From UHGV virus genome UHGV-1366609: DNA of 29,779 nt, one strand, 5' to 3'. A program made the position numbers and the translations under genes. This stretch comes from a virus. Shown in pieces: positions 1 through 29,779 of the stretch; the stretch's first letter is position 1; every line of letters starts with the position of its first letter. Under the pieces are notes generated by a model, which was given only the letters and a program-made list of their open reading frames with translations, searched no databases and was not told the DNA's origin.

Positions 1-1510
1 AACCGGAACCCACTGGCGCCCAATTCTGAATAATCATTGTTGTGTTGTTATGCGCCCTGACGTTCATGCTGGCATTCGTACCATCTGCCCCGCGACACCC
101 CATCGCCATCAGGCAGGCATAAGGAAATGCCGTGTGGAAATTGTAACCACCTGACGATCCTGGCGGGGTACTGGTGACACCCCACATAAAAATCAGATTA
201 ATAAACGCCCCGGATGTTGCCTGCACAGGAAACTTACACATTCCCGATCCAGACAGATGCGCGGTAAAAGCGGCGGCGGGTAATACCTGTCCTGGCATGA
301 CACCAACATCTTTTGTTGCAGCATCTCCCAGCGTCAGATGCCTGAGAACGGATGCCACATCCCCTTTACTTAGCAATTCACGCGCAAATCCTGTCAAAGC
401 GCTCATGCCAACCGTATTTTTCCCGGTAAACCACGGAAACATGTCCTTTTTCGTGACAAGATCGGCAAGCGCAGTTAACAGGGGGTTCGCCAGCTGTCTT
501 TTATTGGCGTTCTCGTTAACCTGCTTAACCGCTGCGGGCGTTGCGGCCAGTTTTTCGGAATCGCTGTCCGTTGCACTGCTTAACTGTACAAAACCCTTTT
601 CGCTGGTTGATGCATCAGGATGATTTCTGGATTGCTCATGCTTTTTTAGCGCATCGCTGGCCGCCTGGTCATTCAGCGTGCCTTTCGGGCGTAAATCTGT
701 GATATTGCCAGCGGCATCAATACTGGCGAGTGCAAAGACATAATGCTGCACTCCGCCCAGCACATAATCGGCAAGATCTGCCGCAACGGTAATGTTGCTC
801 TGTACTGCCCATTCACTCGTTAAGGTCCCTGTCCAGCAGACATCAAGCCAGACCTTTGTTGGCCTGGCGGATGCGGTGATGTTCAGGTCTGCGGGCAGCT
901 CAGCACGCAACCCGGCAACGTATCCCGCCCCCTTTGTGACAAAAAACTGATTGCCGGACTTTGCGACCAGGTAACCCGAATCAAAAAATGCCGCTGCGCC
1001 ATACAGATCGATATTTTCGCGGCGCTGGCGCTCATCCATTGCCGCCAGGCGGGCAGTAAAATCAATCTGCCATGTCTCTGCCGGGGTGGTAATTTCTGTT
1101 GCTTCCCTGGCTCCGCTGTATTCCATCAGCATGGAACGAACCAGCACGTTTCCCTGCTGGCCGTTCGTATTTTTGATTTTGCGCTGGGTCGGGGCGTGAA
1201 TAATCATCGCCAGTGTACCGGTGGCTTTATTTGCCAGTCCGATCCAGTTGAAATCATAATCGCCCACATCCGCACCCAGAGTGACGGAATAAACGACAGA
1301 ATTTTCATTCACAACGCCGGTTTTACTTACCGGCAGGCGATCAACAATTTTATCCGCTGTGGGTATTGTCTCGGTATTATCAATCGGCTTATCAGTATCC
1401 AGCCCCGGAATATAAGCGAAAATAAATTCATCCAGCGTGACGGGCTGATTATCAATTGCCTGCCGGGCTTTCCATTCTGAAAATACTTTTGTAATAACGG
1501 CCTGTGACAT
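1..1510 (-). CDS. Tail fibre protein, N-terminal about 503 aa (partial; ORF runs off the left edge of the window)
   Basis: Hand translation of the minus strand from ATG at 1510..1508 gives MSQAVITKVFSEWKARQAIDNQPVTLDEFIFAYIPGLDTDKPIDN... with no stop before position 1. Contains HEQSRNHPDASTSEKGFVQLSSATDSDSEKLAATPAAVK and DMFPWFTGKNTVGMSALTGFAREL, which closely resemble conserved blocks of P2 gpH as I recall them. Not in the supplied ORF track because it lacks an in-window stop. Confidence 0.8.
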   Translation of the reverse strand, partial: MSQAVITKVFSEWKARQAIDNQPVTLDEFIFAYIPGLDTDKPIDNTETIPTADKIVDRLPVSKTGVVNENSVVYSVTLGADVGDYDFNWIGLANKATGTLAMIIHAPTQRKIKNTNGQQGNVLVRSMLMEYSGAREATEITTPAETWQIDFTARLAAMDERQRRENIDLYGAAAFFDSGYLVAKSGNQFFVTKGAGYVAGLRAELPADLNITASARPTKVWLDVCWTGTLTSEWAVQSNITVAADLADYVLGGVQHYVFALASIDAAGNITDLRPKGTLNDQAASDALKKHEQSRNHPDASTSEKGFVQLSSATDSDSEKLAATPAAVKQVNENANKRQLANPLLTALADLVTKKDMFPWFTGKNTVGMSALTGFARELLSKGDVASVLRHLTLGDAATKDVGVMPGQVLPAAAFTAHLSGSGMCKFPVQATSGAFINLIFMWGVTSTPPGSSGGYNFHTAFPYACLMAMGCRGADGTNASMNVRAHNNTTMIIQNWAPVGSG

Positions 1511-1521
1511 AGGTCTTTCCT

Positions 1522-2121
1522 CTACTTCAAACTTGCGCTATATGTTGCTTCTGACTGGTTATTCACATCACCCAGGGTGGCGGGCCAGCAAATATATTCC
1601 CCCTGATACCAGCCAATATTGATATTCAGTGGCACGGCATTGATTACCTCAAAGCGGTAACGTCGGCAGGTGCGCCCGTATTTACGAATAATTTCCAGCA
1701 GGAGATCACTGTTGCTTGCTATCTGGCGATCTGTCACGCGAACGACAATTACGTCCCAGTCAAGCCCATCCTGCCGCTCCAGTAATTCAACGTAACCAAT
1801 CCCCAGCCGCTCAAAAATGGCGACAAATCCCGCCACTTCTCCGGCCTGCTGAGCATTAATAAATGCGTAGTTCACCCGTTTACGGAAAATGTCGATTGGC
1901 TCACCCTTAAACCGGGTAATATCACGTTCCCAGGCAATCAGATTTAACAACGGCTCGGGGCAGACCAGCGGGTCAAACTGTTTTAACGGCCAGGTGATCC
2001 ACCCGTACACCTGCGACCAGAATTTTACGCAGGCACGCAGCAGCCTGGCAGGGTCGCCTTTATTCATCCACGACGGTAATTTAAGATCGGCAAGCGACTT
2101 CAAAAACTCAGTCATTCTCAA
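1522..2121 (-). CDS. Baseplate wedge protein, P2 gpI-like (tail protein I family)
   Basis: 199 aa ORF immediately upstream of the fibre gene and downstream of the J-like gene; size and position match P2 gpI. Start may be the Met at residue 3. Confidence 0.5.
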   Translation of the reverse strand: MRMTEFLKSLADLKLPSWMNKGDPARLLRACVKFWSQVYGWITWPLKQFDPLVCPEPLLNLIAWERDITRFKGEPIDIFRKRVNYAFINAQQAGEVAGFVAIFERLGIGYVELLERQDGLDWDVIVVRVTDRQIASNSDLLLEIIRKYGRTCRRYRFEVINAVPLNINIGWYQGEYICWPATLGDVNNQSEATYSASLK

Positions 2122-3292
2122 TCTCCACCGTTAACCCTGACAGGCGCGGGACCGACAGTTCGCTGACGATATCCGTCAGCGAAAAATGCAGGGAATCGAC
2201 AACCGGAAAAGTCTTGTGGATCTCGCGGCCCAGATTCGAAAAGGAATAGCGCGAATAGGGTTGCGTCTTTTTTACGTCGTAATTGGCGTTCTCGCGAAAT
2301 GCGCAACGAATCAGGTCGGTAATACCGGTTTTTAACCTGCTCAGATCTTCCGCTTCCATGTTTTCCACGCTTTTGACGTAGACCGTCACCGCCAGGGTGT
2401 GGCTGGTTTCTGGCATGGCATAACACTGCAGATCGTCACCGTGTCCGTGGTGGCCCTGGGTATTCACATAATCGTTAACCGCATCAATAAAGGGTTGCGA
2501 TGCTTCGCCGGTATCCAGTAACAGGTAAGCATTTGCCGTACCCGGCCCTCGTGGGGCATCGTGCAAAAAGTAAATGCGATCAACGCTCAGCCCCAGAACG
2601 CTGGCAATCATGCTCCGGTAGATAGCGTCAGAGTGGTAATTCCCCACCAGATTAAACTGGTTGCGGGTGCGGTCGCGTAGCTCGTCGTCGCTTTCTTCAT
2701 TCGCCCCCGGCGTAATCAGCCATTCGTCCTCATTAACCACGCTGGCGATCCCGGCCACTTCAACGGGTAAGATCCGGTAATAGCCCGGCGCAAGGTTGTA
2801 GCCGCTGCCGGTGCCAGTCGCTGTAACGGGAACAAGGCCACTTTCAACCCCGGCAGGCAGTGTCACGTCTTCATTCACGGCCAGTACATAAACCACGCCG
2901 TTAATGCGCTCCGTTTGCACCAGTGTTCCGGCAGGCACAACGACCGCATCCGCCGCATTCAGCTTATAGAACCGAAGCACGCCATCGGCAGCACTGGCCG
3001 CTTTAGGCACGATATGAACTGCCCAGGCCAACAGGCGCAACATGGGACCGGTGGCCGTCGCAACAAACATGTTGCGCAGAACCACATCGATCAGCGCCGC
3101 ACGCAGCCATAACACCGGCGTGGTGACAATCTTCGAAATCAGCCGCCAGAAAGGTGACATCCTCGACGTGTTTGTGACAAATCCTTCCGCCTGCACGGTG
3201 GCTTTAAATGCCGCCGTAATCTCGGCCTCTGTCGCGGGCATCCCGCTGTCATTCAGTACCTTTTCAAAATCAACGTCGGGTTTCTCAGTCAT
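2108..3292 (-). CDS. Baseplate J-like protein (gp6/gp47/P2 gpJ family)
   Basis: About 395 aa. Start chosen at ATG 3292..3290 (MTEKPDV...), which has AGAGG 7 nt upstream and overlaps the upstream stop as ATGACTGA. Position between the W-like gene and the I-like gene. Confidence 0.5.
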   Translation of the reverse strand: MTEKPDVDFEKVLNDSGMPATEAEITAAFKATVQAEGFVTNTSRMSPFWRLISKIVTTPVLWLRAALIDVVLRNMFVATATGPMLRLLAWAVHIVPKAASAADGVLRFYKLNAADAVVVPAGTLVQTERINGVVYVLAVNEDVTLPAGVESGLVPVTATGTGSGYNLAPGYYRILPVEVAGIASVVNEDEWLITPGANEESDDELRDRTRNQFNLVGNYHSDAIYRSMIASVLGLSVDRIYFLHDAPRGPGTANAYLLLDTGEASQPFIDAVNDYVNTQGHHGHGDDLQCYAMPETSHTLAVTVYVKSVENMEAEDLSRLKTGITDLIRCAFRENANYDVKKTQPYSRYSFSNLGREIHKTFPVVDSLHFSLTDIVSELSVPRLSGLTVEIEND

Positions 3293-3620
3293 AGTTAACC
3301 TCTGTACCGACAGGGCCGAAATCGTAGGTTTCCGCCGTGACATACAACCGCGAAAGGGTTTCTTCGGTGATCACTATGGTTCCTGGGACCAGACGTTCGT
3401 CGCTTTCCACCAATAAGGACAGTTGCGTCAGCACGTCACCGCGCATTGTCGGGCTGCGTTCACCGATCAGGCGGGTGGTGATACCGCTTTCCAGAATGCT
3501 GTGAATAATGTCCTGGGTGATGCTGTCGCGGTTATCGCAACGGCGCGGCTCGTTGCCGCTGTCCAGCGTGAAATCACCGTCAGTGATCAAAAGGTCGATG
3601 TATAACGGTTCGGTACTCAT
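3285..3620 (-). CDS. Small baseplate/tail protein, possibly gpW/gp25-like
   Basis: 111 aa; its ATG overlaps the tape-measure stop (ATGA at 3617..3620). Segment ITQDIIHSILESGITTRLIGER loosely resembles the gp25/gpW core IxQSIxxILxTxxGxR. Confidence 0.35.
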   Translation of the reverse strand: MSTEPLYIDLLITDGDFTLDSGNEPRRCDNRDSITQDIIHSILESGITTRLIGERSPTMRGDVLTQLSLLVESDERLVPGTIVITEETLSRLYVTAETYDFGPVGTEVNYD

Positions 3621-5731
3621 CCTGCGTTAAGCTCCTGCCATTCAGCCAACTGGGCCGGGGTGATTCCATTGGGGGCGTTGATGTAGGTATCGCCCCACGA
3701 TTTACGGTTATCAACGGCGGTTTTGCTGTCGGTTTTAACCTGACTCATCAGGCCGCCGCGTGGGATGTCTGCATTAATTCGGTTCCCCGTCAGCACTGAC
3801 GGGCTGTTCAGCTTCGACGAACCTGCAGCACTGTCAGGAATGACCGCGTTTGCCGGAACGGCAGCCGCTGCCGGTGGCGAAACGGTTTTCAGGTCGATGT
3901 TGACGCCGGGGATCTTGTTTAGCTTCTCCACAATCCAGTTATAGGTAGACGCAAAGGTATTTTTGAGGACGTCAAAAAGTTTGCTGAATACCCCGCCGAT
4001 GGTTTGTGCGAACCCTTCAAAGGTGGCAAGCGGGGAAAGACCGGCAAAGAAATCAACCACCACGGCCCAGCCGTCAGTGATGGACTGCCAGACCTGCGCA
4101 AACACCTGGCCCACCTGTTCAGCGACCGACATCACCCAGGCAAAAGCCGACGTATCCATGATTGCTGTCGCAAGTTCTTCCCAGTGGGTGATGACGTACC
4201 AGACCCCCACGGCCAGAAGCGCCAGCCCGGCAATGATCAGGGTGATCGGACTCATCAGGAGTTGCATTGCCGCCCCGGCAAACATGGTCGCCGCACCGTA
4301 AACCCGCATGGCAATGGCCCCGGCCTTTAACGCGATATTCCATGCAGCAAGCGCGATGCGGCAGACGCCCGTCCACAGCGCCAGTAATTTTGACTGGATC
4401 CACAATGCAGCCAGACCGATGCGCGTCGTCAGCAGGGACGGACGCAACAGGTTGAGCGTCCATAACAGTAGTTTCCATGCGCCGCCCAGTACCTTAGCGA
4501 TTGCAGCCAGCCCCGTCATGGTGAAGCCAAAGACCCCCATCACGATATTGACCGCCGCCCCGGCCAGCCCGAATGACAACACGCCCAGGGTGATGTACCC
4601 CAGCCAGCGGGCAATATTCGGGAACATATCCAGCCAGCGGGCAAATTTTGTCCCCACGTCGGCAATACGGTTCATCAGCGGTGACAGGATAGGGATCAGC
4701 GTGTTACCAATCGCCGCGCGAATGGCAAAGAATGTCGCTTTGATACGTTCCCACGGCTCGGCCATTCGTTCGGCCATTTCCTGGGCGCGTTTCATCCCGT
4801 CATTTCGGCCCAGTTCGGTGATGCTGCGGTTTAATTTATCCTGCTGACCGTACAGCTTTTTGATAACGTCAGCACCACCACCGAACGCGGCGTCCAGCGC
4901 CTGTTGTGCCTTGACGTTTCCTTCAATGCTCTGCCCGTATTTGCTCTGAAGTTTTTGCAGAATGTCACCCATCGGCAGCATTTTTCCGGTGGCATCGACA
5001 AAGCTCATACCCAGCTTTTCAGCGGCAGCCGGGGCGCTGCGTAAAAACTGCTCGTAGATCCCGCTGGCCTCAGTACCCAGCGTGCGCGAAAGCGTACCCA
5101 GGACGGCGAACTGTTCATCCAGGCTGACGCCAAAGTCAGCACCGGCGCTTTTCGTCCCCTCGATAAGCTCCTGCATGGTCTGCATTTTCACGCCGAAGTT
5201 TTGCACCATGTACGCCGTTTTCCCTGCCAGCTCTTCGGCAAAACGTACATGGCCCAGACTGGACAACTCCGCGTTGAAGCGTGACGCCATCGCGCCGATG
5301 TATTCGCCTGCCTCTTCGCCGCTGGCCTTGACGCCTGCGGCCAGGGTATTGGCCGCGATGGTGACGCGGGGCAGGTCCATATCGGACAGGCCCGCCATTG
5401 CGCCTTTCATCGCATAGCTTGACCGGACCACATCAACGGCCCCTTTGCCGTAGCGCATACTGAATCGCATGGCTTCACCGGACAGACGCTTCAGCGCATC
5501 CTCTGCCACGCCTTTGGAACCCACTTCTGCGAGTGCGGCGTTCATCTCATACGCCGGACCCACCACGCCCGCGATGGACTGCGCCACGCCCCAGACAGCC
5601 GCCGCACCGATCCCAATTTTTGTAAAAGACGCCTGCGATTTTTCGGCAAAGCCGGACAGCGAAGACTGGGCCGTCTTTAATGGCCGCGTCAGCTTATCGA
5701 TCAGGCTCAGGGTAAAATCCAGGTGACTCAT
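3617..5731 (-). CDS. Tail tape measure protein
   Basis: 704 aa, Ala/Gly-rich with helical N-terminal half and a block of hydrophobic segments (residues about 380-520). Lies directly downstream of the frameshifted chaperone gene. Confidence 0.85.
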   Translation of the reverse strand: MSHLDFTLSLIDKLTRPLKTAQSSLSGFAEKSQASFTKIGIGAAAVWGVAQSIAGVVGPAYEMNAALAEVGSKGVAEDALKRLSGEAMRFSMRYGKGAVDVVRSSYAMKGAMAGLSDMDLPRVTIAANTLAAGVKASGEEAGEYIGAMASRFNAELSSLGHVRFAEELAGKTAYMVQNFGVKMQTMQELIEGTKSAGADFGVSLDEQFAVLGTLSRTLGTEASGIYEQFLRSAPAAAEKLGMSFVDATGKMLPMGDILQKLQSKYGQSIEGNVKAQQALDAAFGGGADVIKKLYGQQDKLNRSITELGRNDGMKRAQEMAERMAEPWERIKATFFAIRAAIGNTLIPILSPLMNRIADVGTKFARWLDMFPNIARWLGYITLGVLSFGLAGAAVNIVMGVFGFTMTGLAAIAKVLGGAWKLLLWTLNLLRPSLLTTRIGLAALWIQSKLLALWTGVCRIALAAWNIALKAGAIAMRVYGAATMFAGAAMQLLMSPITLIIAGLALLAVGVWYVITHWEELATAIMDTSAFAWVMSVAEQVGQVFAQVWQSITDGWAVVVDFFAGLSPLATFEGFAQTIGGVFSKLFDVLKNTFASTYNWIVEKLNKIPGVNIDLKTVSPPAAAAVPANAVIPDSAAGSSKLNSPSVLTGNRINADIPRGGLMSQVKTDSKTAVDNRKSWGDTYINAPNGITPAQLAEWQELNAG

Positions 5732-5732
5732 A

Positions 5733-6190
5733 TCAGTTTCCGTTAAATGCGATTGCTATCCCTTCCGCCGTCTTACTGGCGCGGGTCTGGGCGAAATATT
5801 CATCCAGCCACAGGGCGCGGGCGATGCTTTCTTCGTCGTCGTCTTCGTGCGGGAGGTAATAGCGGCGCAGGGCAAGGTATTGCTCAAGCGCATTCTTGCG
5901 AATGGCCGCCACCCGCGCCGTCAGTTTTTTACTTCGATCTCAAGTTTGGGGGAGTAAATCTCGTTCACCTTCTCGACGATCTGCATTTCGCAACCCGGAT
6001 AATCTTCCATCAGCTTGTTGAGCGACTCTTTACACTCGGCATCAACAATGCGGCCCAGATACGTCACCATAGGGGCAACCTTATTGGTCATGGTCATTTC
6101 GTTAAGCAGGTTGTTGAACGCGGTTTTATTCGGCTCAAAGCTCAGATTTACGCCCGCCACGGTCATGGCGATTTTTTTCGGTTTACTCAT
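5733..6190 (-). CDS. Tail assembly chaperone, -1 frameshifted fusion (GT/E+E'-like) product
   Basis: Hand translation of the -1 frame from the slip site gives a 61-codon stop-free extension LTARVAAIRKNALEQYLALRRYYLPHEDDDEESIARALWLDEYFAQTRASKTAEGIAIAFNGN, ending TGA at 5735..5733, one nucleotide before the tape-measure ATG (5731..5729). Confidence 0.65.
5921..6190 (-). CDS. Tail assembly chaperone, short (G/E-like) product
   Basis: 89 aa ORF ending ...SPKLEIEVKN; its last codons form the slippery heptamer A AAA AAC directly before the stop. Confidence 0.7.
   Translation of the reverse strand: MSKPKKIAMTVAGVNLSFEPNKTAFNNLLNEMTMTNKVAPMVTYLGRIVDAECKESLNKLMEDYPGCEMQIVEKVNEIYSPKLEIEVKN
5924..5930 (-). 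other. Programmed -1 ribosomal frameshift slippery heptamer A AAA AAC
   Basis: Minus-strand sequence gtA AAA AAC TGA at the end of the chaperone ORF; canonical X XXY YYZ heptamer in the zero frame. Confidence 0.65.
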
Positions 6191-6483
6191 TGTGCTAATT
6201 CCTTACGTTGTCGAATGTTGCCCACCAGGGCGTTATGTCGGGCGGCGCAGTCGGTATACATCTGCCGGTAGGCTGTCAGCGCCGCGTCAAAGTCATTTCC
6301 GGTCGGTCCGGCCAGACGTGGCAGCGTGACCGGGCAAAGTGTCAGCTGGTTTTCCTGATAATTCTCGTTCGGCTTGATCTGCACTTTCGTTGAACAACCG
6401 GACGTAATCATCAGAAGCGCAAAGGTTGCTAAAAACCGGCTTAATGATTTCTGTGCGGATTTCCCGTTCCGTGTGTCTTTCAT
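6187..6483 (-). CDS. Outer-membrane spanin (Rz1/LysC-like lipoprotein), overlapped arrangement
   Basis: 98 aa. Basic N-region, hydrophobic stretch FLATFALLMITSG then Cys (lipobox-like). Mature part is short, Pro-rich with extra Cys. Starts inside the i-spanin gene in another frame and extends past its stop. Confidence 0.6.
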   Translation of the reverse strand: MKDTRNGKSAQKSLSRFLATFALLMITSGCSTKVQIKPNENYQENQLTLCPVTLPRLAGPTGNDFDAALTAYRQMYTDCAARHNALVGNIRQRKELAQ

Positions 6484-6676
6484 TGGCTTTTAGCCCCGCA
6501 AGTTTTGCTTCCAGCGCTTCGCCAGACTTTTGCGTTACTTCAACGACAATCTGGCGCGTTTGTTCTGCCGCTTCACTGGCAGCGAGTTTCAGCTTTGCGT
6601 CGTGCCAGTCATGCGCCTGCCAGCCCGCTGACATTGCAGCGGCCAGAATCAGCAAAAGACCCAGCAGATTGCGCAT
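6293..6676 (-). CDS. Inner-membrane spanin (Rz/LysB-like)
   Basis: 127 aa. N-terminal transmembrane segment LLGLLLILAAAMSAGW followed by a charged, Ala/Glu/Lys-rich helical region. Confidence 0.6.
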   Translation of the reverse strand: MRNLLGLLLILAAAMSAGWQAHDWHDAKLKLAASEAAEQTRQIVVEVTQKSGEALEAKLAGLKANERHTEREIRTEIIKPVFSNLCASDDYVRLFNESADQAERELSGKPADTLPGHAATSGRTDRK

Positions 6677-7014
6677 CAGCGAACCCCGTTATGCTCAAGA
6701 CTGAAATGGTTGCCGTCCGGCTTACTGAAACGGCCACCCCACGATCCGCCGATAGATTCCCAGTATTCGCCCAGGGGGCGATATGCGGCGCTGTCGGTCT
6801 GGTATTCGCCGTTAATAAACAGGTTAAAATCCACCGCAAGGCGCTGGGTATGCAGGCTGTTAGTAATGCCGCTCCCTTTTTTTGCGTTAAGCGCGGCCTG
6901 TTCCGGCGTGCGGTACGCTTCGCCAAACGTCAGGCGATAGCCTTTTTCCTGGGCAAAATGAATCAGGCTGGCGATCATCACCGTAAAAAGTTGCTGTTTT
7001 TCACTCAGTTTCAT
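6676..7014 (-). CDS. Endolysin, zinc metallopeptidase of the M15/LAS type
   Basis: 112 aa. SLHTQRLAVDF (His...Asp) and C-terminal GNHFSLEH (His) match the H-x6-D ... H zinc-ligand pattern of small M15 endolysins. Flanked by holin and spanins. Confidence 0.65.
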   Translation of the reverse strand: MKLSEKQQLFTVMIASLIHFAQEKGYRLTFGEAYRTPEQAALNAKKGSGITNSLHTQRLAVDFNLFINGEYQTDSAAYRPLGEYWESIGGSWGGRFSKPDGNHFSLEHNGVR

Positions 7015-7312
7015 TGCGCTTGCTCCCCCATCGCTTGATATACATGTCCAGGCAGCGCTTTAGCCCCGCCTCAATAAACGCACTTCCCAGAATGCCCAGG
7101 GCGCAGGCCAGCCCAATGACGACCAGTTCCGGCATATCGGGGAATTTCAGCAGCGGGATTGCGGCCAGCGGTGCGACCGCAGATCCCAGAATCATCCGCC
7201 CGACCAGCAGACGGGTTGTGATTCGCTCATTGCTGACCATCAGTTGCCCCAGGCCAATCACGGCCCCGATAAGCAACAGCTTTTCAAGCAGTGACGTTTC
7301 TCCGTTCATCAT
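7001..7312 (-). CDS. Putative holin
   Basis: 103 aa with three hydrophobic segments and a charged C-terminal tail KRCLDMYIKRWGSKRNETE. Sits immediately upstream of the endolysin and overlaps it. Confidence 0.5.
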   Translation of the reverse strand: MMNGETSLLEKLLLIGAVIGLGQLMVSNERITTRLLVGRMILGSAVAPLAAIPLLKFPDMPELVVIGLACALGILGSAFIEAGLKRCLDMYIKRWGSKRNETE

Positions 7313-7316
7313 CGTG

Positions 7317-7772
7317 TCAGCCTTTCAAATCGCGAGTGTCGCGGGCTGACAGGTACGGCACGCCGTCAATCGCGACAAAGTCCGGGCTTGTCACCATGAA
7401 TTTAATTTTCTTCGTGGTTTTGCTGGCCTCGTTGGGGTTGATGTTGACGATGTCGGACAGCGTCGGAACGCAGCCAAACACCTCGATTTTTTCTTCGTCG
7501 TCCCCCGCATTGGCGTAGAACAAAAAGTCCTTTGCCGGAATGGCCCGCCAGGAACCTGCGGCGCGGGCCACGGCGGTAAACTTTTTAAAGTTCTGGGAAT
7601 CGACTTCGACTTCCACATCCGCCGAAACTGACCCTTTCGTGTGGCCGTTTGGGATGCCACGCGACTGCGCAACCGCGCTGTTATCCGTGATGGTGACGGT
7701 GGCGTTTTCGACGTGAATCATGATGGCGTCGTAGTTCACATCGAACGATCCGCCGCTGATACGTTCAGTCAT
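7317..7772 (-). CDS. Putative tail tube protein
   Basis: 151 aa ORF directly downstream of the sheath-sized gene and upstream of the chaperone/tape-measure block. No resemblance to P2 FII noticed. Confidence 0.5.
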   Translation of the reverse strand: MTERISGGSFDVNYDAIMIHVENATVTITDNSAVAQSRGIPNGHTKGSVSADVEVEVDSQNFKKFTAVARAAGSWRAIPAKDFLFYANAGDDEEKIEVFGCVPTLSDIVNINPNEASKTTKKIKFMVTSPDFVAIDGVPYLSARDTRDLKG

Positions 7773-7775
7773 TGA

Positions 7776-8918: not shown

Positions 8919-8920
8919 TT

Positions 8921-10559: not shown

Positions 10560-10610
10560 TGACACACCTCGGTTTTGCAATAGAAACGGGCTAACGGGTT
10601 CCACGGCCAA

Positions 10611-10624: not shown

Positions 10625-10661
10625 ATGCCTCCCCCGCGCCCGTCCCGGCTTGCGGGAGTCG

Positions 10662-20427: not shown

Positions 20428-20435
20428 GGCGGCCC

Positions 20436-20702: not shown

Positions 20703-20926
20703 TTTTTACACTCCACGTTATATTTTTCATGCGTCATCAGTGACCAGACCTTGCCGTCGTTTTTACTCAGCAAGCGCCAGCGCCTACCGATGCGGATCAC
20801 AAGGTAAAAATTGGGTTTGATGCGGGAATAGTTTTTTAGGCCGCGAGAAAAGCGGCGCAGCTCGGCAGCTGCGTGACCGCAGACACCTACCGGCGCAGCG
20901 CATGAGATCTGCAGTTTGCTGACCAT
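20699..20926 (-). CDS. Small basic hypothetical protein
   Basis: 75 aa, Arg/Lys-rich; start overlaps the upstream stop (TGATG). No motif recognised. Confidence 0.4.
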   Translation of the reverse strand: MVSKLQISCAAPVGVCGHAAAELRRFSRGLKNYSRIKPNFYLVIRIGRRWRLLSKNDGKVWSLMTHEKYNVECKK

Positions 20927-22346: not shown

Positions 22347-22416
22347 TTTTACTTTCTCCAGGGTGCAAGAAGCCCGACGCGTTAGCGCCTGTTTCTTTTT
22401 TGTGGGTAGTTAGTTG

Positions 22417-22812
22417 TTAATTGACTGCGTTATCTGGCGCGGGTGGTTTGTCGCGTATCGCCTGAATTTCGGCGCGTGGTGCGGCGTAGTCCTCAAATTC
22501 CCACGGCATTGATGCTGCAAATTCGGAAAGGCGCTTAATGCCCATCAAAAGGCACGTTTGTTCCTTTTCGGTTAGATTTTCGTAAGTGCAACCCAACTGT
22601 TTGGCGGTCAGCTTCGGCATTCCGGCTATGTATCTGGACGCATCGTTTGCCAGGATGAAAATCACCTTTTTGCAGGCATCATCCAGGCGGTTAAAACGAG
22701 TTGCAGTATCGTTCACGCGTGAGGCGTTCAAACTGGCTTGCAGCCGCGCCCGTTGCTCTAAGAACTGGCGGCGGCCTGGCTGTTGTCCTGTTTTATCCAT
22801 CAACATAACCAC
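22417..22812 (-). CDS. Hypothetical early protein (position of P2 B / orf80-83 block)
   Basis: 131 aa ORF in the early leftward operon; no motif recognised. Confidence 0.4.
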   Translation of the reverse strand: MVMLMDKTGQQPGRRQFLEQRARLQASLNASRVNDTATRFNRLDDACKKVIFILANDASRYIAGMPKLTAKQLGCTYENLTEKEQTCLLMGIKRLSEFAASMPWEFEDYAAPRAEIQAIRDKPPAPDNAVN

Positions 22813-22822
22813 CTCGCCCGAG

Positions 22823-23065
22823 CTACGCGAAGATGCCCATTAAGCGGGAAAACCAGCGGCGCTTGTTACGCGGGCGTGACATAAACGGTAAACGGCAGTT
22901 TTTAACAAATTGAACATCTGCCGCTTTAGGCTGGAAGAAACGCCCGTCCGGGGTTTCAATCCAGCCGCGTTGATGCTGACGGTGGGTGATCTGCTGGCCG
23001 TGGGTGAGCAGGCTGGCGAGTGATGGGCATTGTGATAAATCCATAATAAGCCTCGCTACTATCAA
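22823..23065 (-). CDS. Hypothetical small early protein
   Basis: 80 aa ORF, ATGA-coupled to the upstream Cox-position gene. Confidence 0.35.
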   Translation of the reverse strand: MIVARLIMDLSQCPSLASLLTHGQQITHRQHQRGWIETPDGRFFQPKAADVQFVKNCRLPFMSRPRNKRRWFSRLMGIFA

Positions 23066-23529
23066 GCTGTACGTGAAACAGAAAGAGGATTGTGTTGGGT
23101 GCGCTTATGCGTCTGGTGATTGTTACCAGTTACGCGGCGATATGTTTTCTTGTCGCGCATCAGACGATCGATGTAGTGCTTTTCTTCTGGGGTAATAAGT
23201 GCGCGGCAGTGTGCTACGGCGGCCCAGTATTCTTGCAGCATGATGAAACGCTTAGGACGTTTTGAACCCGGCATCCCTTCGCGGTGGACTGGTACTTGAG
23301 CACGATCCATCAGGTTGCGAACTGACTTAAGGGTCCGGCCTGTCAGGTAGGCAAATTCAACAGGTGTAACGAAAATCTGCTTTTGCAGTTCTTCGGTGTT
23401 CATATCGCGAATAGCGTTAGCTTGCGAATCAGTCATTTTGCAGATGCGTGCTATACGGGCGTTATCTAACGGGAACTGGCGAAAATGTGGAGATCCCGCC
23501 GTTAAATTAATTTCTCGATTTTGTGTCAT
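23062..23529 (-). CDS. Early regulatory protein in the Cox/Apl position, putative DNA-binding
   Basis: First gene of the leftward early operon, divergent from the C repressor. Segment FVTPVEFAYLTGRTLKSVRNLMDRAQVPV looks like an excisionase/Cox-type helix-turn-helix; at 155 aa it is longer than P2 Cox, so the start or identity is uncertain. Confidence 0.4.
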   Translation of the reverse strand: MTQNREINLTAGSPHFRQFPLDNARIARICKMTDSQANAIRDMNTEELQKQIFVTPVEFAYLTGRTLKSVRNLMDRAQVPVHREGMPGSKRPKRFIMLQEYWAAVAHCRALITPEEKHYIDRLMRDKKTYRRVTGNNHQTHKRTQHNPLSVSRTA

Positions 23530-23547
23530 TTGCTAGACTCCATAGAT

Positions 23548-23586
23548 TGAGGCTAATTGAGGCTTGTTAAGTACTAATTAGCCTCG
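23548..23586. promoter_or_regulatory. Candidate immunity operator: 10-mer GAGGCTAATT in direct and inverted copies between C and the Cox-position gene
   Basis: GAGGCTAATT at 23549..23558, GAGGCT again at 23559..23564, inverted copy AATTAGCCTC at 23576..23585; CTAATT recurs at 23628..23633. Confidence 0.5.
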
Positions 23587-23652
23587 TGGGGCACATCGGG
23601 CAAATGTTGTCTATGTGCTAATTTCTGGTGATTGTGATGAGATCTTATCATT

Positions 23653-23952
23653 ATGTCAATGACGCAAGGCGAAAAACTAGCTCTTATTCGCGACTCTGAA
23701 CGCTTAACTAAAAGGCAAATGTCTGATTTAACAGGTTTAAATTATTCAAGTTATGGCGGTTATGAGCGAGATAAAACAAAAATGACACTTGAAGCAGCTG
23801 TATGTGTTTTCGGACACCCTCGTTTTCATAAGTATCAAGACTGGTTTATGTATGACCGTACGGACGAAAGCCGGGGGCAAATAGCACCGGCTCTCGCGCA
23901 CAATGGGCCATACAAAATGCAGTCAGACCCCTCAGAGAAACAGACTGGTTAA
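23653..23952 (+). CDS. C: Immunity repressor, P2 C-like
   Basis: 99 aa. MSMTQGEKLALIRDSERLTKRQMSDLTG and the C-terminal GQIAPALAH closely parallel P2 C as I recall it, including identical length. Confidence 0.85.
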   Translation: MSMTQGEKLALIRDSERLTKRQMSDLTGLNYSSYGGYERDKTKMTLEAAVCVFGHPRFHKYQDWFMYDRTDESRGQIAPALAHNGPYKMQSDPSEKQTG

Positions 23953-24021
23953 CATTATATAAACATTACATTTTCACTATTTGTTACCAGGATAGTGATC
24001 TGACTGTTGGAGGGTTTTCTT

Positions 24022-25032
24022 ATGTCCGTTAAGAAACTCGAAGATGGTCGCTATGAAGTGGATGTCAGGCCGCGCGGGCGCGACGGAAAGCGCATACGGC
24101 GGAAGTTTGAGAGAAAGGCGGATGCACACGCATTTGAGCGCAGCATCATCGCTAAGTATCAGAACCATGATTTTTTAAATAGACCGGCCGATAAGCGGAA
24201 ACTAAGCGAATTTATTGCTTTATGGTGGCAGTTAATCGGACGGAATAAGAGCTACGCAAACCGCAGGCTTAGTGCAGTTAACTGCATTTGCCAGGATATG
24301 GGGGATCCCATGATTTACCAGATTGATGCGCGATGTCTTATTGATTACCGGGCATATAGGCTGGAGCAAGGGATCAAGGCTTCAACGATAAATCATGACC
24401 TGTTTGCACTTAGTGGTGTGTTTAAAGCTATGGCCGAAATTGATGAGTTTCACGGTGAAAACCCAGTAACAGCAATTTCAGCGCTGAAAGAGCCAAAAAC
24501 GGAAATGTCGTATTTCACTGAGTCGGAAGTAAACCGGCTGTTATCCCTGTGCTCAGGTGATTACTACCGCATCGCCGTTCTGCTGCTTGCTACTGGTGCT
24601 CGATGGGGGGAAGCCTACCAGCTTAAAGCGGAAAACATTGTCGGTAACAGGGTGATGTTTACAATCACTAAAAACGGAGATCGGCGGGTGGTCCCCATAT
24701 CTGACGACATTGCAAAGATAGTGAAACATCAGGAATCGGGAAGGCTGTTCCGCGTGAGCTATAAAACCTTCCGTCTACGCATGAAAGAAGCAAAGCCCAA
24801 TCTTCCAGATGGGCAAGCCGCGCACGCGCTACGTCATACGTTCGCCACGCACTTCATGATTAAGGGCGGAAATATTATCGCGTTACAACGAATTCTTGGT
24901 CATTCCGATATATCTCAGACGATGACCTATGCTCACTTCGCACCGGACTATTTACTGGATGCGGTGAGTTATAATCCCCTTAGTGGAATGTCCACATTGT
25001 GTCCACACTCTGGAGGCAATGCGGGGGTTTAG
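24022..25032 (+). CDS. int: Tyrosine integrase, P2 Int-like
   Basis: Start at ATG 24022 (MSVKKLEDGRYEVDVRP...) with GGAGGG 7 nt upstream. LATGARWGEA, HALRHTFATHF and LGHSDISQTMTYAHF carry the R...HxxR...Y catalytic pattern and are near-collinear with P2 Int. Confidence 0.9.
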   Translation: MSVKKLEDGRYEVDVRPRGRDGKRIRRKFERKADAHAFERSIIAKYQNHDFLNRPADKRKLSEFIALWWQLIGRNKSYANRRLSAVNCICQDMGDPMIYQIDARCLIDYRAYRLEQGIKASTINHDLFALSGVFKAMAEIDEFHGENPVTAISALKEPKTEMSYFTESEVNRLLSLCSGDYYRIAVLLLATGARWGEAYQLKAENIVGNRVMFTITKNGDRRVVPISDDIAKIVKHQESGRLFRVSYKTFRLRMKEAKPNLPDGQAAHALRHTFATHFMIKGGNIIALQRILGHSDISQTMTYAHFAPDYLLDAVSYNPLSGMSTLCPHSGGNAGV

Positions 25033-25158
25033 AGGGTTAGTTAAGTCTGTTATATACTGAATCAGCGCAGTGCGTTACGGCGCTGCGCTATTTGAAAACC
25101 TCCCAGCAAGGGGAAGGTCAAGTGTTTAAATTGCTGATTGAAAGGGATTTTTAAAATC

Positions 25159-25199
25159 AGCGTCCACATAGCGTCCACACTTCGATAAAAGTGTCCACA
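25159..25199. repeat. Three direct GTCCACA repeats (reverse complement TGTGGAC), candidate integrase arm-type sites of attP
   Basis: AGCGTCCACA at 25159..25168 and 25170..25179 (11-bp period), GTGTCCACA at 25191..25199; the reverse complements read TGTGGACG, TGTGGACG and TGTGGACA. Confidence 0.5.
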
Positions 25200-25212
25200 A
25201 TACAAAGACAAA

Positions 25213-25238
25213 GCCTCGCCACCCGCGGGGCTTTTTTT
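25213..25238 (+). terminator. GC-rich hairpin followed by T7 run (terminator-like; possibly part of the att region)
   Basis: GCCTCGCCACCCGCGGGGC followed by TTTTTTT; the stem is imperfect. Confidence 0.4.
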
Positions 25239-25310
25239 CTTTTACTGAATGCTAGTAATCGTTAGACTTCATGTGACAAAAAATAACCTTTCGACAAGGA
25301 GTGTTTTTAA

Positions 25311-25820
25311 ATGGCAATGACAAAATGTAAAGAGTGCAAAAAAGAGGTATCAGCAAAGGCTAAGACTTGCCCTCATTGTGGAGTAAAGGATCCTGGCTTT
25401 AGCGCCAAAGATGCAATGGGTGGTTTTGTTTTTCTGTTAATCCTTGGGGCAATTGGGTACTGGTATTTCAGTGGTGATGAAGAGGCAACGGCCAAAGATG
25501 AGCCAAAAGTTAAGGTGTGTGCTAAGAATGATGGGCAGTGTATTTTTGAAGCCCATTTAGTTGATGCTTTGGTAGCCTGTAAAAGCCCGATTGAGAAAAC
25601 TTCAAAGTATGATTTCGAATGGACCAATGGTGCATTTGAAAATATCTTTAGTCGGTACATCAACAAACCGGAACAGAACCAGATTGTTTATGTGGGCGAT
25701 AAGCTGAAATTTACGAATGGGTTTAACGCCAAAGTGAACATGACGTATTCATGCACCCTTGACACAAAAACAAACAAAATGATCGATTATGAAGTGACTA
25801 AAGGGCGCTTGCCCGATTGA
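25311..25820 (+). CDS. AT-rich cargo (moron) gene: zinc-ribbon, single transmembrane helix, Cys-containing C-terminal domain; function unknown
   Basis: 169 aa. CKEC-x10-CPHC ribbon, hydrophobic GGFVFLLILGAIGYWYF, then about 115 aa with four Cys. Own AAGGAG 9 nt upstream of the ATG; composition visibly AT-richer than neighbouring phage genes. Confidence 0.6.
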   Translation: MAMTKCKECKKEVSAKAKTCPHCGVKDPGFSAKDAMGGFVFLLILGAIGYWYFSGDEEATAKDEPKVKVCAKNDGQCIFEAHLVDALVACKSPIEKTSKYDFEWTNGAFENIFSRYINKPEQNQIVYVGDKLKFTNGFNAKVNMTYSCTLDTKTNKMIDYEVTKGRLPD

Positions 25821-26013
25821 TCCTTCCTCGCATTATTTTGCAAAAACTATAGCTGCATCATTTCTCCCCAAAGCCTTGCCGCGCAAGGCTTCACGCATTT
25901 TTCAACGAAACTTTCCAGCCTACCGCCGACCACATTTGATCGTGACGGAATCTAAAACGATCCTTTTAAAAACATCATGTTATCCAGTCGGTTAGCGACT
26001 GGCGGCGCGGTGA

Positions 26014-26125
26014 CTTTTGCAAAGTGCTGCAAATCTTTGCGCAGCGTGCAAACGCCCGCAGGATGCAAAAGCCCAGCAGCGGCGCAGGCTGGCGGGGGGC
26101 TTTGCACAAAATTTCTTTTGCAAAA
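26014..26125. repeat. Array of TGCAAA half-sites including two palindromes TTTTGCAAA(G/A) about 100 bp apart, in a 510-bp non-coding gap
   Basis: CTTTTGCAAAG at 26014..26024 and CTTTTGCAAAA at 26115..26125, plus TGCAAA at about 26028, 26048, 26064 and TTTGCACAAAA at 26101. Confidence 0.4.
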
Positions 26126-26329
26126 TTTTTATGATCCAAACTGCGCAGGCGGGTGCGGTGTAGCGCCGTTTCCGTCCTGGATCCGCTTCCGTCTGCCTGC
26201 TGTCGCTTGCGCTGTGGGTCGCTGTTGAACGAACGAAAGAAAGGCCGCACGGTGGCGACCTTTAATGTTTGCGCCTGCTGTGGCGCGTTCTGTGGTGTCT
26301 GGTGAGGTGTGCGGTTATACCGCTTTTTG

Positions 26330-28054
26330 TCAGGCTATCAGGGGACCGTATTTGCTTTTTAATGTGCCGGTTTTAGTGGCCGTTGCGGTGAACTGTGCAG
26401 CCTGCCCGCTGGCCCCTGTATTGGGGTGAGTATGTGACGCGGCAGTCTCTGCCAGCTCCCTCACCACGTCCAGGGTGTCGGTGAGTAGTGTCAGGACGTT
26501 AATCTCTTCGCTTCCCAGTTTTACCACCGGGGCAATCAGTTGTTGCGCCTGGGCCACACTTCGGCGGATGCCGCTGATTTTTTCAGTCAGTGCGCCGCTG
26601 ACGTTTGACGTAACATTCCCTTTCACGTCGTCTGTAACATCGCCCGCGACGTCCCGTTTTACGTTCCGGCCAACACTGACGGAATTGTCCTTGCTGCAGG
26701 TTACTGTCAGGTTGCCGGATGTGCCGATACTGTAATCACCCTCGCTGATATGGACCACCGCCCCGGCCAGAAGTGTGGCCGTGCCAAGCACGGTTGTTTT
26801 ATCCGTTGCCTGGACCGTAGTTTCACGGACAACCACTTTGCGGATCTCTTCGTCGGTGGTGACTTCGCGCATCATGGAGTTTTCGCGGATTGTCTGGTCC
26901 GTCTGGCGTTCCCAGTCTCCGGCAACCGTCACGCGCTGCGATACACCATCGCGCTGTTGCTGCAACTGCTCGCCGGGTTTAACCGCTGGCAGGTTATGAC
27001 CCTCCGCCATAATCTGGCGCACAAAGGGCTTATCCTGCCGCCCCTCAGTGAACCCAATTTCAACCAGCGTGCCAGGGGGCGGAAACTGGAACATTCCCGA
27101 CTCGCTGCCCGCCATTGGCACAGGTAGCGGAACGGCAGAATAAACCGGCGTATTTGCGGCTGGCTTGCCGTCTTCGTCAAGCAGCTGGAGATCCACGGCG
27201 TAGCGCGGGCGGAATGGATCGGCAATATCCCCCCCGGAAACATCCTCGCTTGGTGCTTCCACCCTGGCGAACTTTGGAAGATGCAGGCCGCTTGCCAGCT
27301 CCGGGAATGCGTTTTCAATCTGCCGCTGAATTGGTGATTTTTGCAATGGCTGGCCGTTGGCTTTGTTGCGGGGCTGCCATGTGATTGCCATGTCGTCGTT
27401 ATTTAGCCGAACCTGGTTCAGCCGCTGGCCGTTCACTTCCGCACCCGGTCGCAGGCTCTGAATCATTGGCACAACCATTGAATTTCCGCCTGCCGATTCC
27501 TGGCTAAATTCATGCGGGATCTCCACTGGTTTACCCGCAAAAAGACTGTGCTCCGCAGCGCCGACGAAGACATCCCCGTCCGGCAGCTGATACCAAAGAT
27601 AATCCGTCACTGAAAATGCACGGCCCAGACTGGCAAGAAGCTGATAGCCCGTGCCGCTGTGCGTAAAGTGGGGGATTGGTTTATCTGCATAAGCAGCGCC
27701 GACCGGCGTTGTGACGGTAAGCCCGCTTTGCTCACTTATCCAGTCAGTAATCTGGCGCAGCGTTGGATGCTGGAAAGAACACGGCCACAATTTGTCAAAG
27801 ATGCCAACCAGCTCACGCACGAATAATCGGCATGTTCCATTATCAGCAGGCTGTGACCGTTCAACGTACCCGGTAAACCAGCGCAGGACCAGACCATCAT
27901 AGCCAACATCGATCCGCACCATCTTGCCGGTGTAATCTGTCTCTGTCCCTGCCGTAATAAACCCCCGACCGCACGCGTTCAGCTCCAGCACGATATTGCA
28001 GTCAATCAGATGGACCGGATCAGAGGAAAGGTACAGGCGTTTAATTGGTTTCAT
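26330..28054 (-). CDS. Baseplate central hub/spike protein (gpV/gp5-like OB-fold and His-rich apex fused to a long N-terminal domain)
   Basis: 574 aa. MFQFPPPGTLVEIGFTEGRQDKPFV resembles the gpV/gp5 OB-fold core; C-terminal ASHTHPNTGASG resembles the HxH spike-apex motif of P2 gpV. The first about 330 aa are hub-sized. Confidence 0.55.
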   Translation of the reverse strand: MKPIKRLYLSSDPVHLIDCNIVLELNACGRGFITAGTETDYTGKMVRIDVGYDGLVLRWFTGYVERSQPADNGTCRLFVRELVGIFDKLWPCSFQHPTLRQITDWISEQSGLTVTTPVGAAYADKPIPHFTHSGTGYQLLASLGRAFSVTDYLWYQLPDGDVFVGAAEHSLFAGKPVEIPHEFSQESAGGNSMVVPMIQSLRPGAEVNGQRLNQVRLNNDDMAITWQPRNKANGQPLQKSPIQRQIENAFPELASGLHLPKFARVEAPSEDVSGGDIADPFRPRYAVDLQLLDEDGKPAANTPVYSAVPLPVPMAGSESGMFQFPPPGTLVEIGFTEGRQDKPFVRQIMAEGHNLPAVKPGEQLQQQRDGVSQRVTVAGDWERQTDQTIRENSMMREVTTDEEIRKVVVRETTVQATDKTTVLGTATLLAGAVVHISEGDYSIGTSGNLTVTCSKDNSVSVGRNVKRDVAGDVTDDVKGNVTSNVSGALTEKISGIRRSVAQAQQLIAPVVKLGSEEINVLTLLTDTLDVVRELAETAASHTHPNTGASGQAAQFTATATKTGTLKSKYGPLIA

Positions 28055-28061
28055 CGTTTAA

Positions 28062-28604
28062 TTACCCCAGCGCATCGTTGACCGGCTTTAAGACCTTTTC
28101 TTCAAACCAGCTCATTTTGTCGGCTGGCTCATCAGCACCGGCAGCCGGACCCGCGCCCTTTACCCCTGTTTGCTTGGTGCTGGCCGTCGCGTTGCCTTTT
28201 CGGGCCTGTCGTTTTTCCGGGACGCTGCCTTTTTCACGCAGGGTGAAACTTACCTGCCAGGCAAGGCGATCCTCCTGCGGTACGGCATCAATCTGACCGG
28301 TAAACGTGGCTTCACGAAGGTTGATAGCCGTCGCCGTCGCATTGGCTACGCGGTACTTTTTCAGTGCGCCGCTGGCTTCGGTCGCGGATGCCAGCTGGAA
28401 AAGCCGCTGTAAGACGGCTTCGTCGTCGAATGTCACCAGACCCGACACGCGCAGCTCTTTGGCCTTGATACCCTGTTCAGCATTGGCCGTGCTCGATGTC
28501 TGGCCCGACTGGTCTTTCTCCTGAAACTGCATGGAAGGTGAAACCAGCATGTTCTGCATGGCGATCCCTTCACCATCAAGCGCGAGTAGTGCGGTCTGGC
28601 TCAT
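28062..28604 (-). CDS. Hypothetical tail-module protein (start uncertain)
   Basis: 180 aa ORF between the hub/spike and the 247-aa ORF, overlapping the latter by 29 nt; no motif recognised. Confidence 0.4.
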   Translation of the reverse strand: MSQTALLALDGEGIAMQNMLVSPSMQFQEKDQSGQTSSTANAEQGIKAKELRVSGLVTFDDEAVLQRLFQLASATEASGALKKYRVANATATAINLREATFTGQIDAVPQEDRLAWQVSFTLREKGSVPEKRQARKGNATASTKQTGVKGAGPAAGADEPADKMSWFEEKVLKPVNDALG

Positions 28605-29319
28605 GTAGCATCTTCCCTAAGTCAGATAACGAATCCCCGATAAACATCATCGCGGCGGTATGCACTGCCGTTGTTTGCGGGATGCCTTTCAGTAATTCAG
28701 CGGCGGCAACGGCATAATTCCCGCTGTAGCTGAATGAAAAAATATTCGCGCTGGCGGCTTTCAGTTCATCCAGTCCCTGGCTGAGTGAGGCCAGCAAACC
28801 GGCCCGCTCCTGAATAAATCCCGTCACCTGGTTTTTTAGATCTGTTGTGGTGGTACTGACTGCGGCGGCCAGCTGCGCGGCGGCAACACGCTGGGCATTC
28901 AGCGCCAGCCGGTTGGTTGAGACTGATAACGGCGTACTGGCTGGCAATACATCGGCTTTAACCGGCAACTGCATTTTTACCGTGCTGAGTTCTGCGGCGG
29001 CTGCGGCCATACGGCTTACCTGCGTAAATACCGGGGCCGGAAATACGGTGGACAGTTTATTCAGTCCCTGCATAAAAGCGTCGTGGGTATTTTCCGCCAC
29101 CATCATGACGATGACATCACCGCTACCGCTACCGCCACCGGATAACAGCTTTTTAGCAAGGTATCCCAGCGCATTGGCCGGACTGAGATAACCGCCTGAA
29201 TCGGTGTTCTGTCCCAGACCGTAAACCCAGGGATGCGCCGGAATAACTGAGCAGGATAAAGCCGACATATCATCGGCAATTTTAATAACTGAATTACGCC
29301 ACATTGTTAAAACCTTCAA
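28576..29319 (-). CDS. Hypothetical Ala-rich protein downstream of the tail fibre assembly gene (structural or cargo, unresolved)
   Basis: 247 aa with Gly-Ser linker SGGGSGSGD and an Ala-rich helical region; overlaps the Tfa stop, so the true start is probably internal. Confidence 0.4.
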   Translation of the reverse strand: MKVLTMWRNSVIKIADDMSALSCSVIPAHPWVYGLGQNTDSGGYLSPANALGYLAKKLLSGGGSGSGDVIVMMVAENTHDAFMQGLNKLSTVFPAPVFTQVSRMAAAAAELSTVKMQLPVKADVLPASTPLSVSTNRLALNAQRVAAAQLAAAVSTTTTDLKNQVTGFIQERAGLLASLSQGLDELKAASANIFSFSYSGNYAVAAAELLKGIPQTTAVHTAAMMFIGDSLSDLGKMLHEPDRTTRA

Positions 29320-29737
29320 ATTCCGGCCAGTTGTCTGGTATATCCTGCGGATCTAAAGCGCTAAGCTCATCAAGGTAATCCAGGGCTTTGCCATACAGTT
29401 CTTTTTCGTCGTCAGTAAGACGACCCAGCACTGCTTTACCCGGCCACTGCCTGTCATTGATAAATGTATTAATTTCGTCCAGACGGCGACTTTTCTCATA
29501 TTTAGCCTGGGTAATCAGTTGTTCGCGCGTTAATGGCGGAATATCAATCCAGCATGGTGCGCCTTTTTTATCTGTACCAAGCAGCTTTCCATATGGAGGC
29601 GGCTGAATAAAAGTCAGATAAGTATTCAAATCTACATCCACGCCGGATTTCGGCCAGGTTCCGGCAGCATCAAAATCAGCTTTACTGGAATATGGATAAA
29701 AAATATTTCCGGAAAAACGATATTTATCACTCATCAT
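29294..29737 (-). CDS. Tail fibre assembly protein (P2 gpG / lambda Tfa-like)
   Basis: Start at ATG 29737 (MMSDKYRFSGNIFYP...), preceded by TGAGGTG. C-terminus ...ALDPQDIPDNWPEFEGF matches the conserved P..WPE ending of Tfa proteins as recalled. Confidence 0.6.
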   Translation of the reverse strand: MMSDKYRFSGNIFYPYSSKADFDAAGTWPKSGVDVDLNTYLTFIQPPPYGKLLGTDKKGAPCWIDIPPLTREQLITQAKYEKSRRLDEINTFINDRQWPGKAVLGRLTDDEKELYGKALDYLDELSALDPQDIPDNWPEFEGFNNVA

Positions 29738-29779
29738 CACCTCAGTAACCAATTGCAAACCAGATGCAGTCTTCCCAGC

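Follow-up and report, generated by a model that had tools for sequence, protein, structure and literature searches.

The virus genome record UHGV-1366609, a stretch of 29,779 nucleotides that was analysed whole and is referred to here as the window, raises the question of why an integrase gene (int) and its attP-like repeats should lie well inside a temperate phage sequence that has phage tail genes at both of its edges. The original prediction, made from the nucleotide sequence of the window, offered two explanations, viz., a complete genome of about 29.8 kb that is circularly permuted or two related prophages in tandem. We conclude, with a probability of roughly 0.93, that the window is one complete genome copy of a temperate HP1-type phage of the Peduoviridae, obtained from a closed-cycle metagenome assembly that was linearised at an arbitrary point. 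The circularly permuted genome is supported by a repeat in the parent record, by homologues of the tail fibre and by a collinear prophage of Citrobacter braakii.

The parent scaffold and the join of its ends

Exact-protein look-ups initiated with three window proteins led to one metagenome scaffold, COST17-1_SAMEA4545320_METAG-scaffold_467 (ENA identifier ERZ28578491; 29,834 bp), as the parent of the window. Positions 1..15731 and 14022..29779 of this scaffold are identical to the window and, when the record was inspected beyond the window edges as had been proposed, it was found to continue past 29779 for only 55 nt, which equal window positions 1..55 exactly; the window is the scaffold minus this terminal repeat. 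The end of the contig repeating its start is the signature of a circular assembly, and a 55-nt exact terminal repeat would be the expected output of a de Bruijn assembler with k = 55 walking a closed cycle. The 55-nt sequence is present only at the scaffold ends. Within the window itself, from which the repeat has been trimmed, no terminal repeat of at least 8 nt was found, and neither were internal repeats of at least 25 nt that would suggest duplicated modules. The gene tables of the scaffold contain no host DNA, flanking host sequence being absent from the record, and each essential module is present in one copy.

These observations bear on the tandem arrangement, in which the window would start in the fibre gene of one prophage and extend, via an attP-like junction between the copies, into the tail genes of the next copy. 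P2-type phages are established to form tandem double lysogens, and such an array also has a P-core-P' junction and can collapse to a cycle in a de Bruijn graph. However, the parent record is exactly one unit long plus the 55-nt repeat, without host junctions and without duplicated or diverged modules, and host branches at the attachment core would normally break an assembly at 25096..25122 and not in the fibre gene. The ends of the window moreover fit to the base against an independent prophage (see below), which would be a coincidence had the window been cut from a longer array. We thus find the tandem alternative unsupported and very improbable.

If the window is a closed genome, positions 29779 and 1 should be neighbours in the real molecule, and the gene at the left edge should continue from the right edge. 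The two parts of this gene are as follows.

1..1510, minus strand: tail-fibre gene (HP1 orf31 / P2 H analogue), codons 1-503 and the first base of codon 504; ATG at 1510; cut by the left edge
29742..29779, minus strand: end of the tail-fibre gene, from the second base of codon 504 to the stop (CWEDCIWFAIGY and stop); continues from position 1 across the circular join

The left edge does cut a tail-fibre gene, as had been noted, and reading the minus strand from 1510 through 1 and then from 29779 yields an open frame of 515 codons with TGA at 29744..29742. The wrap-around stop had been placed correctly; the ATG of the tail-fibre assembly protein (Tfa) had been put 5 nt further on, whereas the first ATG lies 4 nt after the stop, at 29737. 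The caution that another frame also ends nearby holds as well (stop at 29739..29737), but only the fibre frame is open upstream and matches homologues. On the source scaffold the fibre is called as a truncated product of 503 amino acids (aa), and an exact look-up of the rebuilt 515-aa fibre found it absent from the protein collection, as is expected for a gene that is split on the linear scaffold. Ten homologues agree with it in length or in their C-terminal end, nine of 515 aa and one 159-aa fragment with the same C-terminus. The nine come from separate assemblies, with seven of them in the 90% cluster. Gapless alignment through the join covers three 515-aa homologues, P0001 (98% identity; C. 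braakii), P0002 (79%) and P0003 (66%), and six more proteins of the 98% cluster, likewise of 515 aa, can be matched to the rebuilt fibre residue by residue, with substitutions as the only differences. Pfam identifies Phage_tail_fib, Phage_fiber_2 and Gp53-like_C on the 98%-identical homologue.

The join is likewise continuous in DNA of independent origin. A prophage of C. braakii (L002; JBSDSP010000002.1) matches the circularised window in a single high-scoring segment pair (HSP) of 15,358 columns with 96.6% identity, which starts at window position 11513, descends to 1 and continues from 29779 to 25935. This 15.4-kb match, with the capsid gene at one end and the non-coding stretch beyond the baseplate gene at the other, includes the fibre/Tfa cassette. 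Positions 11510, 11511 and 11512 of the prophage pair with window positions 1, 29779 and 29778, so that no base is missing, extra or duplicated at the join. A search with 1.6 kb of join DNA against 5,426 complete Escherichia coli genomes and 50,697 phage records matched the flanks only, with nothing spanning the join.

The same comparisons address the idea that the join is an assembly artefact, i.e., that the contig is linear or chimeric, that its ends have 55 nt in common by chance or through a repeat, and that fibre and Tfa come from different phages. Consistent with such an origin, the cassette of fibre C-terminus and Tfa is swapped relative to the Salmonella phage SI7, to which it has no DNA match, and the base beside the join is unique among the homologues. 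Yet the C. braakii prophage has the same cassette and the same join at 96.6% identity, the join recurs in the nine 515-aa homologues, and the 55-nt sequence has no internal copy. An artefact is accordingly barely credible.

Some points do weigh against a closed, complete genome. The support for the join, which comes from the k-mer overlap of the assembler and from independent genomes, is indirect, and the terminal repeat could in principle also come from a collapsed tandem array. The exact attP pattern has no match in the viral contigs of IMG/VR, which leaves the genome without an independent circular record. Virions of P2/HP1-type phages contain linear DNA with cohesive ends; the assembled cycle must hence derive from replicative, excised or cos-annealed molecules. 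Lastly, codon 504 reads TGC (Cys), its T being the complement of position 1 and its GC that of positions 29779 and 29778, whereas all ten homologues have Tyr at this codon, which needs a plus-strand T at 29779. Base 29779 could be a C/T variant or an end-of-contig error, and a C/T polymorphism bubble at this base would explain where the assembler opened the cycle, with the contig starting at the next node. The oddity at codon 504 does not affect the topology.

Taken with these reservations, the evidence supports positions 29779 and 1 as neighbours in the real molecule and places the opening point inside codon 504 of the tail-fibre gene. That int is internal and that tail genes occupy both edges follows from the record being one of the unintegrated phage, opened arbitrarily; such an arrangement is what ordinarily results when a circular or concatemeric phage genome is assembled and written out from an arbitrary start. 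We also observe that the break falls in the middle of the host-range cassette (the fibre C-terminal Gp53-like domain and Tfa; 29305..29779 and 1..500), which is the part swapped relative to SI7, and that in many fibres of Salmonella and Citrobacter the similarity is confined to the N-terminal 66-72%, at 85-95% identity.

Gene order and relatives

Open reading frame (ORF) listing together with Pfam and phrog family searches of the window proteins revealed a single complete P2/HP1-type gene set, in which all essential functions are present once. The principal features other than the fibre gene are listed below.

1522..13485, minus strand: late operons, each gene once; collinear with SI7 and HP1
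13663..15474, plus strand: large terminase (Terminase_6N/6C/5)
15471..16532, plus strand: portal (Phage_portal)
16529..16855, plus strand: Ogr/Delta late activator (Ogr_Delta; phrog_603)
17818..20427, minus strand: replication initiator of the P2 gpA / HP1 rep type, 869 aa (Phage_GPA, 2.7e-107)
23653..23952, plus strand: C-type repressor with a helix-turn-helix, transcribed towards int (weak HTH_19 and HTH_3 matches)
24022..25032, plus strand: tyrosine integrase, int (Int_N and Phage_integrase)
25311..25820, plus strand: 169-aa cargo ORF with an N-terminal zinc ribbon, in a variable slot between cos and attP (weak zinc-ribbon matches; phrog_13160)
26330..28054, minus strand: 574-aa baseplate protein at the HP1 orf35 position (phrog_2258, 1e-276; weak matches to the baseplate-hub phrogs 196 and 430)
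28062..28604, minus strand: HP1_ORF34 baseplate-complex protein (PF25759, 4.8e-53)
28576..29304, minus strand: 242-aa ORF at the HP1 orf33 position (scaffold gene call; phrog_1677; synteny with HP1 and SI7)
29294..29737, minus strand: tail-fibre assembly protein Tfa, HP1 orf32 / P2 G analogue (Caudo_TAP, 2.7e-20; phrog_188)

From 13485 downwards, the late minus-strand genes encode the GPO scaffold, P2-family capsid, small terminase, head-tail adaptor, gpR and gpS, followed by the sheath (DUF2586), tube (HP1_Orf24), holin, M15 endolysin and spanin, and then, to 1522, by the tail chaperones, tape measure, DUF2590 and baseplate J and I. The early genes occupy the minus strand from 23529 down to 16882, and a small ParE-like ORF is also present in the window. 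The position of int agrees with the original prediction, and so do the genes to its right, with the 169-aa cargo ORF as an addition; the 574-aa protein, which had been described as a hub/spike protein, has no Pfam match. Tfa directly follows the fibre in the C. braakii prophage too.

The cargo slot is variable. In the window (25200..25935) it holds the 169-aa ORF and the guanine-cytosine content falls to approximately 0.43; the corresponding slot of the C. braakii prophage (15347..16600) holds an AbiH abortive-infection gene and that of SI7 two small ORFs.

The wrap-around order that had been proposed, running from the fibre through Tfa, two ORFs and the hub/spike gene to attP, int and C, is borne out, although it is the order of HP1 and not, as had been stated, a P2-like one. 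The Haemophilus phage HP1 (Hpunavirus; NC_001697), the ends of which were determined experimentally, has a module order identical to that of the window: int, repressor, early genes, rep, methylase, portal and terminase on one strand, then scaffold, capsid, small terminase, adaptors, sheath, tube, lysis, tape measure and baseplate genes, ending with orf31 (fibre), orf32 (Tfa), orf33, orf34, orf35, cosR/cosL, attP and int. The organisation of the window is thus of the HP1 type, including the divergence of portal and terminase from scaffold and capsid and, putatively, the position of cos, and the window also contains the Pfam families HP1_Orf24 and HP1_ORF34. On the other hand, HP1 has no detectable DNA similarity to the window, infects another host, has no cargo gene between cos and attP and has an unrelated cos. 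The Escherichia phage P2 (Peduovirus) has in common with the window the P2-family capsid, the GPO scaffold, gpL/R/S, gpA replication, Ogr/Delta and the C-int operon, with approximately 80% DNA identity over 266 nt (23875..24140; 3' end of C and 5' end of int). P2-type phages show about 80% identity in their C/int stretch to 23875..24141, which holds the 3' end of the repressor gene and the start of int. In P2, G and attP are separated by FI, FII, E, T, U, D and ogr, and cos adjoins the portal gene, unlike the candidate cos of the window.

The closest known phages are the Salmonella phages SI7, SW3 and SW5 (Irrigatiovirus SI7, Peduoviridae; NC_049460, MK972714 and MK972713; 30.0 kb), which are collinear with the entire window and share 93-95% DNA identity with it over the structural, lysis and replication genes. 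They match 84% of the first 25 kb of the window at approximately 93.5% identity, and the order of SI7 (fibre, Tfa, two ORFs, baseplate protein, small ORFs, int, regulator) is the wrap-around order of the window, with the regulator gene in the same position, adjoining int. The window differs from SI7 in several modules. The int/attP/cargo module is different, only 23875..24141 matching between 23029 and 25878 (81% identity); the fibre C-terminus and Tfa (29305..29779 and 1..500) are without DNA match, the fibre being of 515 aa in the window and 648 aa in SI7; and several early genes differ. The three Salmonella phage records are one 30,037-bp sequence opened at three places, inside the portal gene in SI7, inside the baseplate gene in SW3 and in the non-coding stretch of the cos region in SW5, all of them points interior to the window, which indicates that arbitrary opening is normal in this group. 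The RefSeq record of SI7 (NC_049460) keeps a 127-nt terminal assembly overlap (1..127 and 30038..30164) and splits the portal gene, just as SW3 splits the baseplate gene.

The International Committee on Taxonomy of Viruses places phages in one genus at 70% or more, and in one species at 95% or more, nucleotide similarity over the genome. About 23.3 kb of the 29.8 kb of the window are identical to SW5/SI7 in BLASTN HSPs, i.e., approximately 78%, which lies above the genus threshold and below that of the species Irrigatiovirus SI7, the int/attP, the fibre-tip/Tfa and some early modules having been replaced. At species level the phage is thus new, while its genus (Irrigatiovirus or next to it) and its architecture are known. 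No literature naming Irrigatiovirus was found that is about this phage group. The nearest fibre (98%) is from C. braakii and the nearest integrase (99%) from Citrobacter youngae CCUG 30791, which suggests that the host is probably a Citrobacter. The int/attP/cargo stretch has no match in the 5,426 complete E. coli genomes, and a typical E. coli is hence not the expected host.

Candidate cos site, attP and lysogens

Two non-coding features lie between int and the baseplate gene, on either side of the cargo slot.

24990..25199, plus strand: attP, consisting of P arm, core and P' arm (repeat clustering; prophage junctions)
25935..26329, no strand: conserved non-coding stretch of 395 nt between the baseplate and cargo genes, holding the late-operon terminator and the candidate cos

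The prophages and SI7 conserve the non-coding stretch, and Yersinia phage YenM_324 does so in part, the conservation of a block at approximately 26070..26180 extending to this phage. It contains the terminator of the late operon (26240..26263, minus strand) and a candidate cos, GGTGTAG at 26157..26163 (region 26143..26177). The linear SW5 record ends at the equivalent of window 26155/26156, and SI7 (at approximately 20480) and SW3 (at approximately 223), which are otherwise 100% identical, are without exactly GGTGTAG, a heptamer that is present in the window, in three prophages and in YenM_324. The cos of HP1 is at the same map position. The 19-nt cos of P2 was not found in the window even when up to 3 mismatches were allowed, the P2 cos junction scored only at noise level in local alignment to the window, and the HP1 end sequences are unrelated to the window; the assignment consequently rests on synteny, on the ends of the SW5, SW3 and SI7 records and on the 7-nt gap. 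The virion ends would likely be formed at a cos near 26157..26163.

The attP-like repeats that had been noticed beside int are real. Five of the seven copies of GTCCACA in the window fall within 24990..25199 in one orientation, at 24990 and 25001 in the P arm, which lies within the 3' end of int, and at 25162, 25173 and 25193 in the P' arm. They flank a 27-bp core, AAACCTCCCAGCAAGGGGAAGGTCAAG, at 25096..25122. Shuffling gave 2.9 copies for the whole window, and none of 100 shuffles reached seven. No tRNA genes, as attachment sites, were found in the window.

The core is delimited by prophages in other assemblies, in which the hybrid attL/attR junctions and host genes that the original prediction had suggested looking for are present; the parent record has none. 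In two assemblies that encode an identical 169-aa protein (L003 and L004), the gene of an 834-aa P-type ATPase (copA) lies immediately to the left of the gene for this protein, and in six assemblies with an identical integrase (L011-L016) host genes follow immediately to the right of int, namely glsA, ybaT and cueR in L011 and hemin-uptake (hemin-ABC) genes and then cueR in L012-L016. The cargo-side junctions match the window from 25096 rightwards and the int-side junctions match it up to 25122/25125, so that homology switches within 25096..25122 in both groups, which defines a common core. The phage and the int side have C at position 25102 and the copA side has T, which points to strand exchange to the right of this position. 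In L011, both junctions are found on one contig around a decayed element, with core copies at 2407..2433 and 11075..11101. This element (2400..11100, approximately 8.7 kb, between copA and glsA) retains only Ogr, gpU, resolvase, Fil and int together with both core copies, and is a grounded remnant of a phage with the integrase type of the window. The C. braakii prophage is also integrated, with AbiH and then host genes (peptidase U32 and others) at its tail-gene end; its P' arm and attachment site differ from those of the window.

In simple prophages int does lie at one end next to host DNA, as the original prediction held, and in these lysogens int and the cargo/baseplate genes are at opposite ends. 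The window has no hybrid attL or attR junction of the kind an integrated prophage, single or tandem, would have, and its attP is intact and unrecombined, with P arm, core and P' arm together. We propose that Int would act on the 27-bp attP core (25096..25122) and on its identical counterpart in the copA promoter of the host, recombining the two, and that integration would leave int at one prophage end and the cargo and baseplate genes at the other. The unintegrated form could be circular DNA, a concatemer from replication or virion DNA joined at cos, and in it attP joins int to the end of the tail operon.

A circle could alternatively be a stable episome, i.e., a phage-plasmid, and not a transient form of an integrating phage, for which the closed circle without host junctions in this sample and the small ParE-like ORF might speak. 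In contrast, int and attP are intact, and several isolate genomes carry the identical int and cargo genes in integrated form at the copA promoter. The Pfam calls included no gene for partition or plasmid replication, and the mode of replication, by gpA-type rolling circle, is that of P2/HP1. A stable episome is thus hardly to be expected, and the circle is better read as the unintegrated form of an integrating phage.

The attachment core and the copA promoter

Copies of the core are found in the window (25096..25122), in L003 (9786..9812) and twice in L011 (2407..2433 and 11075..11101). The reverse complement of the host copy is CTTGACCTTCCCCTTGCTGGAAGGTTT, and the fragment of the E. coli copA promoter used as a CueR binding site is TTGACCTTCCCCTTGCTGGAAGGTTTA (PMC9004249). 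The host core copy includes 26 of the 27 bp of this published fragment, and the phage copy has one more difference from it, at 25102. The core spans the -35 box, the 19-bp spacer with its CCTTCC/GGAAGG dyad and the first base of the -10 box. The integrase clade of the window appears to integrate into the -35/operator/spacer region of the copA promoter and to rebuild the promoter, which then has the host-type base on its copA side. Related int genes of Rouxiella, Yersinia, Rahnella and Citrobacter amalonaticus (75-77% identity, and approximately 90% in a partial C. amalonaticus copy) are closely followed by the same core. The top literature match for copA together with a prophage attB turned out to contain the text word 'copackaged' and not copA.

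Since the core coincides with the CueR operator, the free phage would carry a near-perfect CueR site in its attP and each lysogen a second one beside int. It is conceivable, though we consider it unlikely, that CueR, which bends and unwinds operator DNA, takes part in or modulates integration and excision, or that the extra operator alters copper homeostasis.

For annotation, the window should be treated as a complete circular temperate phage genome of approximately 29.8 kb, with the fibre annotated across the origin (515 aa), and its arrangement should not be read as an unusual prophage or a tandem lysogen; the value of this result is mainly one of bookkeeping. The likely 7-nt cos that is missing from the RefSeq record of SI7 may be of modest use to those working on P2/HP1 phages. 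The integration module and host-range cassette, which differ from those of SI7, illustrate the usual mosaic exchange of this group. The attachment site in the CueR operator is the one lead possibly worth more work, with modest use for the P2/HP1-phage and copper-regulation fields, and an involvement of CueR or an altered copper homeostasis, if true, would link lysogeny to copper stress.

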